Origin: a virus | Taxonomy: Duplodnaviria > Caudoviricetes | Length of the DNA: 64,000 bases | IMG/VR virus record: IMGVR_UViG_3300032320_001009 | Location: 1-64,000 of that record | Strand: one strand, 5' to 3' | In this document: positions 38,009 to 57,503 of the stretch, in pieces | Numbering within the stretch: the stretch's first letter is position 1 | Layout of the letters: each line of letters opens with the position of its first letter | The notes under the pieces: generated by a model | What the model was told of the DNA's origin: nothing | Seen by the model: only the letters and a program-made list of their open reading frames with translations | Database searches by the model: none | Position numbers and translations under genes: made by a program

Positions 38009-38674
38009 ATGCCCGCTGTATACCCATCAGGGGTCAAGTCCTTTCAAAGTAAAACGGACTTTACCGACATCATTTTGGCAGAGCACGTTAATGCTATCCA
38101 AGAAGAAATTACTGCAATTGAAGCATCGGTTGGTGTATCACCAAACGTATCGGGCGGATATGTAGGTGCATTTGATGACACCACAGTTACCTTTGCAACC
38201 CTTTCTGCTCGCATTGCTAACATCGAAAAAGGTATCAAAGGCGATGTACATAATCAATACCTAAAATTTACTGGTGGCACAATTCAGCCAGCCAACTCTG
38301 GCACAGTTCCCCTTACCCTCCAAGGATTTACTAGCCAAGCAGCAGACTTGCTTAGATTTACAACATCTGCTGGTTCGGTTTTAACCAAAATTGATAAAGA
38401 TGGAAAAGTAATTGTCAATAACCAAGAACTAAAGCCAATTCTTATGGGGTCTACCCAACCAGATGCTGTTGCTCTTGGATTACCTACAGGAACAATTTGG
38501 GTTGATTCAGACTCAACTCCTGCCGTACTTGCTGCCGATACAACACTACAAATCACAGGAGGAACCCTTACAGGAGACCAAGCACTTACATCCCGTCTTC
38601 GTAACATCACGGTCTCAACTTCAGACCCAACTGGTGGTAATAACGGAGACATCTGGATTAAGTACATCGCGTAA
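38009..38674 (+). CDS. minor tail / fibre-base protein
   Basis: SD AGGAG; HVNAIQEEITAIE coiled coil; ends GGNNGDIWIKY. Confidence 0.6.
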   Translation: MPAVYPSGVKSFQSKTDFTDIILAEHVNAIQEEITAIEASVGVSPNVSGGYVGAFDDTTVTFATLSARIANIEKGIKGDVHNQYLKFTGGTIQPANSGTVPLTLQGFTSQAADLLRFTTSAGSVLTKIDKDGKVIVNNQELKPILMGSTQPDAVALGLPTGTIWVDSDSTPAVLAADTTLQITGGTLTGDQALTSRLRNITVSTSDPTGGNNGDIWIKYIA

Positions 38675-38683
38675 GGGATACAC

Positions 38684-39907
38684 ATGGCTATCGGCTCTAG
38701 AGTATCGGGTAACCTTAAGTCTGCTTCTGGGCTATTTGCAAAAGTAAATGGCGGTTGGAAGAAGGCTCAATTCGGCTATGTAAAAGTTGAAGGTGAGTGG
38801 AAGCAATTTTGGGCAGACAAATTAGAGGATGACTTTGGTCGAGCAAATACGCAAAGTGGTTTAGGTGTTGCAATTTCTGGTCAGGCTTGGTCTGTCTTAA
38901 GAAGTTTGTGGCAAATTAAAGATAACGCTGCTAATACTACAGGAACTAAAACAGACTACCCATTAGCGAATGTTGAATTAGGATTTATAGATTTTGAACT
39001 TGAAGCAAACGAATTAACGCCAGGAACAGGTGTTGCAGTACGTGTTGAAGACGCAAACAACTGGTGGGGAGTTCTTCCGTTTTACAACCAAACTGCTGAG
39101 TCTTACTCATACTGTGTTCAATCTGAAACTGTTTCGTACTGTATTCAAGCATGTACTGAACCCTACGATTACACTTTGCGGTGTGACCCGCCCAATACTT
39201 TAACTTCAGGGGACATTTACGACTTTTATTGTCCTGCTGGTTATGTAATTGGTGAACGAATTGAGTTAGTTGACACGGGTGAGGTCGGATGTACTGGAGG
39301 CGGGTACGTCTTAGAGTGCGAAGACGTAGAGACTTGCGTAAACAAATGTGTTAAATATGGCTCACGTGGACAATGTATTGACAGAGATATTGTCTGTACC
39401 ACTAAACGCGTCTGTGGTTATGTCAAGCAAGAACCAGTCTGTGAGCCCATCTTTGAGGAACGAATCGTAGAGTTTGAGTACTGCCCAGGTGGTGAGGCAT
39501 ACGGTGTAGTGGGAAGTTACCAGGAGTGTGGTCCCGATGGATTTACTAATGTTCCTTTGTACGCTTGTTGCTTTGCTGGCACTTATGAAAGATGCGTTCA
39601 ATCAGCCACAGGAATTAACTACACAAATTTCTACTATTTACAGGTAGTTAAAATGGTTGACGGTGTTTTTTCTGTTGTAAGTTCTGTTGAAGTCCCTTCT
39701 CGATGGAGTGCCGTAAAGGTTGTAGGAAACCTCAACACTTTGACTGCAACGGCGTATACTGACAGCCTATACACAAATGCTATAGGCACATTTACTACAA
39801 ACACCTTTACTTCAGCGGGTACGGGATATGGGGTAATGTCACGTGCAAGTAATTTTGAAGATGCTCGTACAATAGGTTCGATAAAAGTAAAAGCGTTAGG
39901 ACAATAA
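38684..39907 (+). CDS. tail-associated protein with 18-Cys insertion
   Basis: KVNGGWKK/KVEGEWKQ N-terminal fibre-type repeats. The beta-sandwich body has no Cys; all 18 Cys lie in 39113-39595. Confidence 0.7.
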   Translation: MAIGSRVSGNLKSASGLFAKVNGGWKKAQFGYVKVEGEWKQFWADKLEDDFGRANTQSGLGVAISGQAWSVLRSLWQIKDNAANTTGTKTDYPLANVELGFIDFELEANELTPGTGVAVRVEDANNWWGVLPFYNQTAESYSYCVQSETVSYCIQACTEPYDYTLRCDPPNTLTSGDIYDFYCPAGYVIGERIELVDTGEVGCTGGGYVLECEDVETCVNKCVKYGSRGQCIDRDIVCTTKRVCGYVKQEPVCEPIFEERIVEFEYCPGGEAYGVVGSYQECGPDGFTNVPLYACCFAGTYERCVQSATGINYTNFYYLQVVKMVDGVFSVVSSVEVPSRWSAVKVVGNLNTLTATAYTDSLYTNAIGTFTTNTFTSAGTGYGVMSRASNFEDARTIGSIKVKALGQ

Positions 39908-39908
39908 T

Positions 39909-40190
39909 ATGGAAAAAAGACCTTGGGATATTTGGAAAGAAAAACAGGCTGGTGACTCTGTTCGTCCTTGGGATTTAGTTAACCCAAAAATTGGAAGGGT
40001 AGATGCCGAGACTTACGAGTATAGATACACCAACCACTGTTTAAATTGCCCATTCCTTATTCAAGCCACTAAGACTTGCAAGAAATGCGGTTGCTTTATG
40101 ACTAAAAAGGCTGAATTGCCTCATGCTTCATGCCCCATAGGTAAATGGGGTTCTGTTACAGTATCTACCGAAGGAGAATCAAATGACTGA
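39909..40190 (+). CDS. small Cys-rich protein (DUF6171-like)
   Basis: CLNCPF...CKKCGCFM..K..L..ASCPIGKW; N-terminal RPWD repeated twice. Confidence 0.7.
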   Translation: MEKRPWDIWKEKQAGDSVRPWDLVNPKIGRVDAETYEYRYTNHCLNCPFLIQATKTCKKCGCFMTKKAELPHASCPIGKWGSVTVSTEGESND

Positions 40191-40413
40191 ACAAATCACC
40201 AGAAAAATCACACCTAGCAATCCAGACGTAACAAAGAACCTCGCCTTCATCCTAGATGACGAAGTTGTAATAGTTATGGGCACAGATGAGCGTCACGCTG
40301 CTGTATTTCTCAGCAACCCAACAGTTGTAGAGTTTACCCGTGGTGCTGAAAACAACCCGCAACTTGGTTGGAAATGGGACGGCACAAACTTCACACCACC
40401 AGTTAGTGAGTAA
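40183..40413 (+). CDS. small hypothetical protein
   Basis: LAFILDDEVV...DERHAAVFLSNP...GWKWDGTNF; overlaps the previous gene. Confidence 0.65.
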   Translation: MTEQITRKITPSNPDVTKNLAFILDDEVVIVMGTDERHAAVFLSNPTVVEFTRGAENNPQLGWKWDGTNFTPPVSE

Positions 40414-40870: not shown

Positions 40871-43081
40871 ATGGCAAAGTATTTAAGTGCTGTCTATCGT
40901 GGTGCGGTTTATGGAAACCCTCCTCGCCTTATTTACAATGCAGAGCCGATGGAGGCTTCTGCCATTGACTACGGGAAACTATCTGTTTATTGGAACTCGC
41001 CTTCGGGAAATTTTACAAAAATTCGTCTTGTTAGAAACAACGATAATTTTCCTGAAACAGAAGAAGATGGCGTAATTCTGTGGGAACAAGCCTCTACAAC
41101 TTCTTTAAGCGGTTTAGTAAGTCGCAATAGTTTTGTAGACGGAGAAGATAACTTTACTGATGGTATAACCTCAAACGACCTTCCTGTAACTCCAGGTCAG
41201 TTTATTTATTACACCATTTGGCTTTTTACAAACAACAGCGTTTGGATTCCTGCTGGTTACGCATCTGCTTTAATGCCAGAAAATCGCGGAAGTCAAAAAA
41301 CTTTATTTGAAATTTTGCCAAAGGTATACACAAGTCTAGAACAAAGCCCAACAGGGATTCCAAACCCTAATAGTTTTATATATAACTTTCTTCAAGGATT
41401 CTCGTTTACATTTGACCAAACATTAACGTATGCGGAATTAGTAAAGCCTTCCTACGGTCGTCGTAAAACTCCCCCTACACTTTTGCCCGCATTAGAAAAT
41501 AGTTTGGGGCTAACCCCAGAGCGTGGTATTCCATATCGTAATCAAAAGAAGTTAATACGTGAAGCAATTTACCTGTACCAAACTAAAGGAACTCTAACTG
41601 GTATCCAAAATTACATCGAAGCATTGAGTGGCTATAACCCAACAGTCACCATATCTCCAAACCTTATGCTAGATACCCAAGACTCTTCATTCACTAAATC
41701 AATTGGTCGTTGGACACGTACTTACGGAACTTTAACTGCCGTTAGCAATAAGCCTGGACCAACGGGTACAAATGCAATTGATACTGTGTGGTCAGGTCGC
41801 ATGGTTACTGCTGTATCAGTTGTTACTTTTAAATCGCGCTTAAACAACGTTGCTACATTAACTACAGGTGCTGCTCACGGATTAATTGCAGGTGATTCTG
41901 TTGCTGTAACAGGTGTGGATTCTTCATTTAACGGCAATGTCAGCGTTGTCTCTGTCCCTACCCCAACAACATTTACTTATGCAAATACTGATGTAAATGT
42001 CACACAAGTGGCTGCTACAGGTTCCGTGTCTAATACCTCATCAATGTCTCTTGGACGCGATAACCCTGTAAAAAACGGTATACCTGTTAATGCAAGCACC
42101 TCATATAAGTTTACCTATCACGCTGCTTCAGACTCAAATGGAAGTCTTGTTGCTCAAATTTTTTGGTTTGATTACTTAGGAGCACAGATTGGCGGTGCTG
42201 TTGAAGGCACTGTGTACGGAACTACGGGCGTGTATCAAAGAATTGAGCAGACCGCTACCTCTCCTGCAACAGCGGTATACGCAGGTCTTCGAATAATTTT
42301 CCGCAATCAAAATTCTTATAACATTGACATGGTTCAATTTGGCGAAGCAGCAAAGGTCTCTACATTTGATGAGGCTAGAGCATTTGACGTATTTCTTGAA
42401 CCAAGAAAAGTAAACATTATTGCTAATCCTTCTTTTGAAACAAACACCGATAACTGGACAACAAACTCATCAAAAACACGAGTAGCGGATGTACCAGCAG
42501 GTTTGCCAGGAGCCTATTCAATGAGGTTATCTGGGCAGAATAGTTTGGCTGTTTCCGCAAACGCAAACAAAGTCCCAACCACATACAAACTTACAGAGGG
42601 ACAGTCATACACATTTTCTTGCTACTTAAAAGCATCTGCAGCAGCATCGGTCAATGTAAACATCACAGCAGTAGATGACAATGGTCCAGGTTCAGTTACA
42701 GCAACAACAGTTGCTGCATTAACAACAGTGTGGAAAAGGTACTATGTGTCACTCTTTGTACCTGAAGGTCTCTCTGTCAGTGGCAACATCACATTGAGCG
42801 TAGGGTTAACAGGCACTCTTACTGGACAAAACGTCTTTATAGATGCAGTACAGGTTGAACAATCCTTTACTCCAACTGATTACTTTGATGGCTCACTACC
42901 TCAAGACGTAGGTGTTTTCTGGTCAGGAACAGCCCATGCCTCCTACTCGTATTATTACGTAAACCGTTTGTCTAAGATGCCTCGCATTATTCTGACACTT
43001 AAAGACTGGGTTCCTTACAACGCCCCGTACAGAATCCGCTCATTTAAGGGTTTAGAAGGCACAAGCGACACAGTGATTTAG
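40871..43081 (+). CDS. baseplate/tail protein (P2 gpI-like) with FN3-like and carbohydrate-binding modules
   Basis: LPALENSLG...QKKLIREAIYLYQTKGTLTGI (gpI-like); two CBM-like NPSFETNTDNW / YTFSCYLKA domains. Confidence 0.7.
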   Translation: MAKYLSAVYRGAVYGNPPRLIYNAEPMEASAIDYGKLSVYWNSPSGNFTKIRLVRNNDNFPETEEDGVILWEQASTTSLSGLVSRNSFVDGEDNFTDGITSNDLPVTPGQFIYYTIWLFTNNSVWIPAGYASALMPENRGSQKTLFEILPKVYTSLEQSPTGIPNPNSFIYNFLQGFSFTFDQTLTYAELVKPSYGRRKTPPTLLPALENSLGLTPERGIPYRNQKKLIREAIYLYQTKGTLTGIQNYIEALSGYNPTVTISPNLMLDTQDSSFTKSIGRWTRTYGTLTAVSNKPGPTGTNAIDTVWSGRMVTAVSVVTFKSRLNNVATLTTGAAHGLIAGDSVAVTGVDSSFNGNVSVVSVPTPTTFTYANTDVNVTQVAATGSVSNTSSMSLGRDNPVKNGIPVNASTSYKFTYHAASDSNGSLVAQIFWFDYLGAQIGGAVEGTVYGTTGVYQRIEQTATSPATAVYAGLRIIFRNQNSYNIDMVQFGEAAKVSTFDEARAFDVFLEPRKVNIIANPSFETNTDNWTTNSSKTRVADVPAGLPGAYSMRLSGQNSLAVSANANKVPTTYKLTEGQSYTFSCYLKASAAASVNVNITAVDDNGPGSVTATTVAALTTVWKRYYVSLFVPEGLSVSGNITLSVGLTGTLTGQNVFIDAVQVEQSFTPTDYFDGSLPQDVGVFWSGTAHASYSYYYVNRLSKMPRIILTLKDWVPYNAPYRIRSFKGLEGTSDTVI

Positions 43082-57170: not shown

Positions 57171-57503
57171 ATGGATGAACCTACTTATGCGTGGAGGTAT
57201 AAAGCACGGTGCAAAGGCGTTGCCGACACCGACATCTTTTACCCCCCACGTGACAAAGACCTTTACAAAGTAATTGCTGATGAAGCAAAATCTTATTGTT
57301 TTGGCGAGAACGGAAAGAACCCTTGTCCTGTCAGACTTAATTGTCTGTGGGATGCGGTAGAAAGAGAAGAGCCACATGGAATTTGGGGCGGTATGTCACA
57401 TCGTGAACGTAACGCTTTAATTCGAAAGTGGAAGAAAAGTTACAAAAAGAAGATGACATTAGAGCAATACATTATGGGATTGGACGATTGGGATGAGCAG
57501 TGA
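57171..57503 (+). CDS. whiB: WhiB-family Fe-S transcription factor
   Basis: WRYKARC, DIFYP, AKSYC, CPVRLNCLWDA, GIWGGMSHRER, basic C-terminus. Confidence 0.9.
   Translation: MDEPTYAWRYKARCKGVADTDIFYPPRDKDLYKVIADEAKSYCFGENGKNPCPVRLNCLWDAVEREEPHGIWGGMSHRERNALIRKWKKSYKKKMTLEQYIMGLDDWDEQ

Follow-up and report, generated by a model that had tools for sequence, protein, structure and literature searches.

Actinophages carry at the periphery of the baseplate BppU/gp23 proteins in which a small N-terminal attachment part is followed by a lectin-like domain, and for one of these, Douge BppU-CBM (gp23, PDB 8ZDO), binding to mycobacterial cell-wall glycans has been demonstrated experimentally (PMC13033339). 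Functional disulfides in a phage tail have been described in the freshwater cyanophage Pam3, a myophage, where baseplate and fibre bonds were confirmed by mass spectrometry and are sensitive to dithiothreitol (DTT) (PMC9942802). Here we describe a tail protein gene, and the two small genes behind it, in a stretch of 64,000 nucleotides (the window) that comprises positions 1 to 64,000 of the IMG/VR virus record IMGVR_UViG_3300032320_001009 (Caudoviricetes); the full phage record has 89,243 bases and is ~93% complete. The gene (38684..39907, + strand) lies inside a myophage baseplate operon and encodes a protein of 407 amino acids (aa), referred to below as the ladder protein. It is likely that this is a peripheral baseplate or fibre protein built from a docking N-terminus, a sandwich of the lectin or carbohydrate-binding module (CBM) type and an exchangeable ribbon with nine rungs, with two helper-like genes following it.

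The ladder protein has the highest cysteine count of any open reading frame (ORF) in the genome and is encoded in a single copy. Its 18 cysteines, at residues 144, 153, 157, 167, 183, 203, 212, 218, 222, 231, 238, 244, 253, 267, 282, 295, 296 and 304, all fall within a segment of 161 codons running from C144 to C304 (39113..39595, + strand), with none elsewhere in the 407 aa. This confinement, and the inter-cysteine spacings 8,3,9,15,19,8,5,3 / 8 / 6,5,8,13,14,12,0,7, had been reported in an initial annotation of the window and were reproduced exactly on recomputation. The same annotation had read the spacings as close to mirror-symmetric. Measured as the sum of the absolute differences between each spacing and its mirror counterpart, the asymmetry is 17, compared with a mean of 44.8 when the spacings are permuted (p ~5e-4), and random placement of the cysteines gives the value of the query at p ~1e-4. 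The test was picked after the pattern had been seen, and was repeated on ~50 distinct cysteine patterns from homologues, each of which proved to be mirror-symmetric, mostly at p <= 0.005. Details of the sequence that had been pointed out also hold: the tip loop VKYGSRGQ (39350..39373, + strand) lies between C222 and C231, EDVET (residues 213-217) lies opposite TTKRV (239-243), and CVQS is present at C144 and again at C304.

Evidence that these cysteines act in pairs comes from the homologues, of which a word-indexed search gave a set of 72 full-length sequences (A1; 31-100% identity). The cysteine count is even in 72/72 of them, ranging from 14 to 34, and in all 72 the cysteines are restricted to the central region. 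When pairs are nested from the outside inwards (C_i with C_(n+1-i)), their midpoints fall within a few residues of one another. At alignment columns where cysteine is variable, the mirror column is the reciprocal best partner (phi 0.92-1.0; column sums 564-584), and across 17 mirror column pairs both or neither of the positions hold cysteine in 1128/1224 cells. The lengths of the two arms, 73-104 residues, co-vary (r 0.86), and over the family the hairpin spans 154-202 residues and 7-17 putative rungs, with 9 in the query; longer homologues carry up to four extra nested cysteine pairs at the region of the tip loop. An exhaustive profile search extended the comparison to a superfamily of 1802 representatives (50% identity clusters, E<=1e-3). 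Among the 121 listed representatives with at least 8 cysteines, the count in the cysteine cluster is even in 115 (binomial p 3e-27) and mirror symmetry reaches p < 0.05 in 43. One of the distant members, P0257, has strictly periodic rungs, with spacings of 11x6, 17, 11x6. A tblastn search of 50,697 GenBank phage records with the query and the distant members P0257 and P0239 gave no match, and hence no homologue from a cultured phage, in that collection.

Two AlphaFold2 (AF2) models were built from the A1 alignment of 72 sequences. The model of the whole protein has a mean predicted local distance difference test (pLDDT) score of 89.3, and that of residues 120-330, which comprise the hairpin, reaches 94.7. 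Both models contain one hairpin, in which residues 126-166 pair with 288-325, 172-182 with 272-283, 188-201 with 254-266 and 207-225 with 231-249. The predicted ribbon (aa 126-325; 39059-39658, + strand) has arms of ~85 residues each and appears to extend from two neighbouring strands of the sandwich, and at its end residues 226-230 are non-strand in both models. It is interrupted by three symmetric breaks rich in proline and glycine, each with a cysteine pair (CDPPN/PDGF, CPAGY/CPGGE and GCTGG/EPVC). With strand registers of i+j ~454-456, the pairs C203/C253, C212/C244 and C218/C238 fit exactly. The long antiparallel hairpin that the initial annotation had proposed, projecting from a beta-rich tail protein with nested pairing from C1-C18 to C9-C10, is thus borne out by the strand pairing in the AF2 models, by the co-variation of mirror columns and by the even counts in 72/72 homologues; the monomer model which it had suggested as a check likewise gives a continuous hairpin with symmetric strand pairs. 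At the level of prediction and co-variation, the insertion is a cystine-ladder beta hairpin, that is, an antiparallel two-stranded ribbon with nested cross-strand cysteine pairs, for which nine nested disulfides may be assumed.

On either side of the insertion lie the two halves of the body (aa 50-143, 38831..39112; aa 305-407, 39596..39904; both + strand). Comparison of the AF2 model with solved structures by VIA-align matched the body to CBM66 (4b1m; Z 17.4, root-mean-square deviation 2.3 A, 148 residues aligned), to the receptor-binding domain of TM4 gp23 (9n6a; Z 15.3) and to Douge BppU (8zdo_a; Z 15.2), and below these three to dozens of lectins, GH16 enzymes and GH43-associated domains. 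The body is accordingly modelled as a ConA-like lectin/CBM beta-sandwich, the N-terminal half of which precedes the ribbon. At the sequence level the ladder protein matches no Pfam family at E <= 0.1, and its PHROG matches, to families without assigned function, are confined to the first 44 aa and a portion of the cysteine region. No part of the protein is better conserved than the N-terminal segment (~49 aa; 38684..38830, + strand), which has short beta strands and a motif of the G-x-W-K type and is modelled at low pLDDT (51-79) in the monomer. This segment also stands at the start of other proteins (phrog_25859, phrog_36019 and loci L058-L062), and it is probably an adaptor for attachment to the tail.

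The cysteine-bearing stretch is an insertion, as had been proposed, since short relatives free of cysteine match the body on either side of it; one of these, P0256 (259 aa, 0 Cys), matches both halves with ~65 residues between them. In other relatives this site is occupied by a short insert rich in cysteine or by a long one that has none. Mean column conservation falls from 0.70-0.76 over the N-terminus and body (0.76 at the N-terminus) to 0.36-0.43 in the distal ribbon. The body is 96% identical to that of the homologue P0002 and the hairpin 75%; for P0041 the values are 61% and 19%, respectively. P0002 is encoded on a near-identical phage contig (L009), and comparison with this contig gave for the body a synonymous divergence (dS) of 0.26 and a non-synonymous divergence (dN) of 0.018, and for the hairpin a dS of ~2.9, about 10-fold that of the body, with dN 0.165 and dN/dS 0.06. 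At the nucleotide level the flanks are 90-100% identical to L009, and the stretch 39091-39630 is 65-83% identical. Because the dS of the hairpin is ~10-fold that of the body and the drop in identity is limited to 39091-39630, the divergence is attributed to the exchange of old alleles as a cassette. These data indicate that the conserved scaffold accepts the ribbon at one fixed site as an exchangeable cassette, which recombination swaps between otherwise near-identical phages. Simple positive selection was rejected as the cause of the divergence, with hairpin dS saturated and dN/dS at 0.06-0.24. A role of the hairpin as target of a diversity-generating retroelement was also rejected: the 89-kb genome contains no RVT_1 match, and blastn of 39113-39595 against the genome returned only the segment itself. 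Of the earlier expectation that the insertion would be hypervariable and yet keep even, symmetric cysteines, the pattern itself is found in the homologues, while the variability is mostly the exchange of old, purified alleles.

The insertion site and the lectin body also occur in other arrangements within the superfamily. In P0189, P0266, P0260 and P0280 the site is filled with non-mirrored tandem cysteine repeats (for example, spacings 1,2,4,9 or 4,0,9), so that it hosts more than one kind of Cys-rich architecture. Five giant proteins of 1593-2471 aa (P0161, P0193, P0213, P0186 and P0247) repeat the N-terminal half of the lectin body (profile positions 47-128) 5-8 times in tandem, each copy with a C-x8-C pair, at regular intervals of ~100 and ~180 residues. 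A second hot spot of divergence from L009 was seen in the central part of the fibre-like gene directly upstream of the ladder gene (221 aa), where nucleotide identity is 55-71% between flanks of 90-100%; this part may be swapped jointly with the ribbon cassette or separately from it.

Two small genes follow the ladder gene, the first encoding a 93-aa protein with six cysteines in the arrangement C-x2-C...C-x2-C-x-C...C (39909..40190, + strand) and the second a compact, Cys-free protein of 76 aa (A4 family; 40183..40413, + strand). An AAGGGA motif resembling a Shine-Dalgarno sequence precedes the ATG of the ladder gene, going downstream from the ladder gene, successive genes are first set 1 nt apart, then overlap by 8 nt and then lie 2 nt apart, and no promoter or terminator signals above chance were found. 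As judged from these junctions, the ladder gene is translationally coupled to its neighbours. Both genes and their tight junctions had been described as such in the initial annotation; its label of Cys-rich partners fits the 93-aa protein (6 Cys) and fails for the 76-aa protein (0 Cys). The 93-aa protein scores 26.0 bits against PF19668 (DUF6171), just under the cut-off of 27, and matches phrog_13558 at E 2e-12; among its 77 homologues, PF19668 is annotated in 30, and NCBI lists one as a DUF6171 family protein. These matches place it in DUF6171. Its six cysteines (C44, C47, C57, C60, C62 and C75) are invariant in 29 aligned members, and the gene evolves slowly (dN/dS 0.03-0.04). In profile searches against PDB sequences the only likenesses were weak ones (E 0.12-0.4) to the RING-like domain of NSE1 and to ribosomal protein L32, across C44/C47/C57/C60. 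The A4 family has no Pfam or PHROG match, and none of 7 members matches Caudo_TAP or Caudo_TAP_N in Pfam at E <= 1; its likeness to tail-fibre assembly proteins lies in its position after a fibre-type gene only, the Atlas feature score of 0.78-0.79 being below a meaningful level.

To assess how constant this arrangement is, we examined the 45 related loci in which the ladder homologue is full-length and the sequence extends far enough downstream. The order ladder gene, DUF6171, A4 is kept in 44/45 of them (41 from IMG/VR), including the divergent loci L056 and L057, and in the sole exception (L031) the sequence ends too soon past DUF6171 to hold A4. The synteny check proposed for the three genes was therefore positive, and it reaches well beyond the close family. 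In two further loci of different context that encode distant periodic-ladder proteins (L012 and L013), an A4 homologue comes next after the ladder gene and DUF6171 is absent, which leaves A4 as the most constant companion of ladder proteins. A survey from the side of DUF6171 used 49 distinct loci with at least 3 kb of upstream sequence, drawn from the 80 matches most similar to the query; IMG/VR as a whole holds more than 583 DUF6171 loci. In 36/49, a same-strand gene with at least 8 cysteines ends <=1.5 kb upstream; these 36 upstream genes encode up to 1058 aa and 40 cysteines, with even counts in 32/36, and only 14 match the A1 profile. Cys-rich genes make up 36/74 of the genes near-upstream of DUF6171 versus 10/169 of other genes (Fisher odds ratio 15, p 7e-14). 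The distance from DUF6171 to A4 is at most 700 nt in 37/49 loci, and DUF6171 is present in 69/72 loci anchored on A4. An earlier view of the adjacency as mere inherited gene order, which had come from loci L004, L006 and L008, was overturned by the 49-locus survey. Taken together, gene order shows that the grouping of a Cys-rich tail protein with A4 and DUF6171 returns in many lineages, in both gene orders and around different clients.

Some loci hold additional genes. In L103 (3697-4422), L127 (1991-3349) and L128 (2688-3980), two A4-family genes flank DUF6171, sometimes with a ~230-aa gene between, and the set of small proteins appears modular because of such loci. In L012 (3564-6679), L013 (5622-8694) and L008 (5162-9580), A4 or DUF6171 is followed by a 2-oxoglutarate (2OG)-Fe(II) oxygenase (PF13640), two uncharacterised genes and an NAD-dependent sugar epimerase/dehydratase, with an N-acetylglucosamine (GlcNAc)-transferase-like gene in addition in L008. 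The oxygenase and sugar genes suggest hydroxylation or glycosylation of the same tail proteins.

We propose that the N-terminal ~49 aa dock the ladder protein to the tail, and that the modelled lectin/CBM body binds sugar, its fold being of the kind that binds cell-wall glycans in Douge BppU and TM4 gp23. The nine nested cysteine pairs, from C144-C304 inward to C222-C231, would be oxidised to disulfide rungs when the particle reaches an oxidising environment; by analogy and from the predicted structure, this is the most likely fate of the pairs, the chemistry itself being inferred. Such rungs would stiffen, and protect from proteases, a ribbon that is otherwise unstable, highly acidic and exposed to solvent. 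As the most divergent segment of the protein, and one that is swapped between near-identical phages, the ribbon may be a probe or spacer that contacts the host surface and helps to set host range. DUF6171 and A4 are, on the evidence of gene order, most likely factors for the folding, oxidation or assembly of the ladder protein. In a more far-reaching version, the trio would be a phage oxidative-maturation system, in which DUF6171 and A4 template or catalyse the ordered closure of 7-20 rungs, or hold the client reduced and soluble until lysis; we put this forward tentatively, as a possibility with the odds against it. If true, it would be a bacteriophage counterpart of the cytoplasmic disulfide pathway of poxviruses, serving a large class of "cystine-ladder" host-recognition ribbons, and these may exceed in length every other free-standing two-stranded beta ribbon known.

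Several observations count against the disulfide-laddered, host-contacting ribbon and its proposed helpers. Phage particles are put together in a reducing cytoplasm, and no match to thioredoxin was found in the 89-kb genome; nor was there one to Erv1, which says little, the same search having matched no control genome either. The assignment of putative rungs was read from strand boundaries and co-variation. Partners are ambiguous between C153 and C157 on one arm and the adjacent C295 and C296 on the other, and three pairs are off register, at loops or bulges (C222+C231 = 453, C167+C282 = 449, C183+C267 = 450), so that some rungs sit at bulges or joints, or their cysteines pair otherwise. The predicted template modelling score (pTM) is low, at 0.60 for the whole protein and 0.44 for the hairpin, and the four segments may accordingly be collinear or folded back. 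In P0177 and P0229 the inserts at the hairpin site are long and Cys-free, and rungs are thus not obligatory for an insert. The hairpin dN/dS range given above is far below 1 and gives no direct signal of positive selection. Of the companion genes, DUF6171 has no Cys-rich neighbour in its most distant loci (L004, L006 and L008), and the synteny statistics ignore shared ancestry.

The ribbon could instead be a structural strut that runs along, or interlocks with, baseplate or fibre subunits, or bundles into a beta tube, with the rungs locking the assembled state. Pam3 offers a precedent, with baseplate and fibre contacts locked by disulfides and loss of fibres triggered by DTT, and the ladder gene does lie inside the baseplate operon, not at its end. 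A dN/dS below 1 in the ribbon would also suit a strut, as would the conservation of the tip (0.43), which does not fall below that of the ribbon's middle (0.36-0.38). However, contacts with conserved neighbours predict conservation, whereas the ribbon is the least conserved part of the protein, varies in length by 48 residues and is swapped as a cassette between flanking genes that are 90-100% identical. The co-variation of the cysteines is intramolecular, between mirror partners, and not intermolecular, and the strongly acidic, polar ribbon lacks a hydrophobic face. We regard the strut as unlikely and continue to favour a probe or spacer that contacts the host.

It is improbable that the cysteines bind metal across the arms, as zinc or Fe-S clusters, in place of forming disulfides. 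Folding in a reducing cytoplasm would favour metal, the neighbouring gene encodes a Cys6 protein with a weak likeness to zinc ribbons, and some relatives have C-x2-C and CC clusters. Yet counts of 14, 18, 22, 26 and 34 are common, and among the 121 listed superfamily representatives only 60 of those with even counts, about half, have multiples of four, which argues for pairs rather than Cys4 metal sites. Cysteines are gained and lost as single mirror pairs and not as tetrads, most cysteines of the query are isolated, 5-19 residues from the next on the same arm, and the hairpin contains no histidine.

Equally improbable is that the extended ribbon is an artefact of modelling and that the insert is a compact, disulfide-knotted mini-domain in which a nested order of cysteines mimics a hairpin. 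The low pTM, the tendency that AF2 may have to over-extend beta hairpins on shallow alignments (here 72 sequences) and the three predicted joints, at which segments could fold back on each other, are compatible with such a globule. Against this, the hairpin-only model is locally of very high confidence, with pLDDT 91-98 over the ribbon, the constancy of nested-pair midpoints and the co-variation of arm lengths owe nothing to AF2, and strictly periodic rungs such as those of P0257 are hard to square with a globule. The remaining alternative, a hairpin that penetrates the membrane or envelope and is comparable to a beta-pore-forming toxin stem or to the long loops found in the tail knob of phi29, has its basis in the sole, weak structural look-alikes of the hairpin (the phi29 gp9 knob, the Andhra tail, and the pore stems of lysenin, anthrax protective antigen, iota and CDTb) and is very improbable indeed, as these matches are insignificant (best Z 2.8, template modelling score <= 0.16) and have only a "long hairpin" in common, the ribbon is 23% charged with a net charge of -15 and has no alternating hydrophobic face, and hypervariability and variation in length are unexpected for a pore stem.

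The underlying comparisons were as follows. The ribbon contains 0 His, and mean hydropathy is similar for even and odd positions in all four of its segments, with no amphipathic alternation. With the hairpin alone against solved structures, VIA-align found no real counterpart (best Z 2.8) and only 11 chains at Z >= 2, and Foldseek against PDB returned nothing at E <= 1e-3 for the whole model or for the hairpin alone; the best Foldseek match of the hairpin was the phi29 knob (E 4e-3) and the remainder were stems of pore-forming toxins.

The surroundings of the ladder gene are those of a contractile tail. Upstream lie genes for a sheath, a gp19-type tube, a T4-type baseplate protein, an M23-bearing tape measure, a LysM protein, a gpD-like hub, gp25, Baseplate_J and a gp5-OB spike, and because of this tail and baseplate gene set the virus is taken to be a contractile-tailed phage. 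The fibre-like protein of 221 aa upstream of the ladder gene (38009..38674, + strand) matches, with its C-terminal 25 aa, the end of the tail-fibre family phrog_14064. Downstream lie a gene for a 148-aa protein and a gene for a P2 gpI-like baseplate protein of 736 aa (40871..43081, + strand; Tail_P2_I E 4.9e-5) with a CBM_4_9 domain (E 1e-10). A WhiB-like gene at 57192-57419 of the window (PF02467, E 1e-16, above cut-off) indicates an actinobacterial host, as WhiB is a hallmark of actinobacteria and their phages. Two short Cys-dense ORFs were also noted as candidate genes, one of 79 aa with 15 cysteines at 86670-86909 of the genome (+ strand) and one of 76 aa with 13 cysteines at 238-468 of the window (- strand).

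Host-recognition proteins of phages are normally poor in cysteine because they are folded in the cytoplasm. Our literature search found no description of DUF6171 or of a disulfide-laddered hairpin in a phage tail protein, and the only relevant case of a disulfide-bonded tail was Pam3. New here is a lectin-type actinophage adhesin with an unprecedented structural insertion and a companion gene pair. The ladder family would provide a long, stiff and exchangeable probe made from a two-stranded ribbon with up to 17 cross-links, and the cassette, bounded at ~39091 to 39630, is a likely determinant of host range in abundant, uncultured actinobacterial phages. If the rungs are real disulfides, the question becomes where and how the phage oxidises them, and the two small genes that travel with the ladder gene are concrete candidates. 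A conserved lectin scaffold with a swappable, self-stapled ribbon would also amount to a natural display platform.

Of the known systems, the actinophage BppU/gp23 proteins are closest, with the same layout of a small N-terminal attachment part and a lectin-like domain at the baseplate periphery. Douge BppU, TM4 gp23 (PDB 9N6A) and CBM66 (PDB 4B1M) share the sandwich fold modelled for the body, with 148-173 residues aligned, but identity in these structural alignments is only 10-11% and there is no Pfam link. The alignments cover only the body (148-173/407 residues), and the laddered ribbon of ~160-200 residues has no counterpart there. The N-terminal part has ~49 aa here versus a ring domain of 100 aa in BppU, and the phage described here is a myophage, whereas Douge and TM4 are siphophages. 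Pam3, a freshwater myophage whose tail apparatus holds disulfides of demonstrated function, is a precedent for the rungs proposed here. It differs in that its bonds are few, inter-subunit and intra-wedge, and attach fibres, with no ladder, hairpin, lectin scaffold or reported small Cys6 gene.

Outside phages, theta-defensins, protegrins and tachyplesins are secreted host-defence peptides of 17-18 residues with 2-3 disulfide rungs, the theta-defensins being backbone-cyclic. Like the predicted ladder ribbon, these cystine-ladder peptides have two antiparallel strands with parallel nested rungs; unlike them, the ladder protein is a virion protein of 407 aa that is produced in the cytoplasm and lacks a signal peptide context, and its 9 predicted rungs lie in an insertion of 161 residues. 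In vaccinia virus, the sulfhydryl oxidase E10R together with A2.5L and G4L, small virus-encoded proteins with cysteine motifs, gives virion disulfides in the reducing cytoplasm. The poxvirus pathway serves as a conceptual analogue for DUF6171 and A4; no Erv1/ALR or thioredoxin-fold gene was found here, and DUF6171 is at most weakly zinc-ribbon-like. The initial annotation had likened the hairpin to the stalk and knob of the bovine ultralong third heavy-chain complementarity-determining region (CDR-H3), which has a rung-free stalk, carries its disulfides in a compact knob at the tip and gains diversity by somatic mutation. The likeness extends to a long two-stranded ribbon that leaves a beta-sandwich binding domain and to a number of cysteines that changes and stays even. 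The analogy of stalk and knob itself does not survive the AF2 models, in which the tip is a short loop with no knob: unlike in the bovine CDR-H3, the predicted rungs run along the whole ribbon to a tip loop of 5-8 residues, and diversity arises by recombination between phages.

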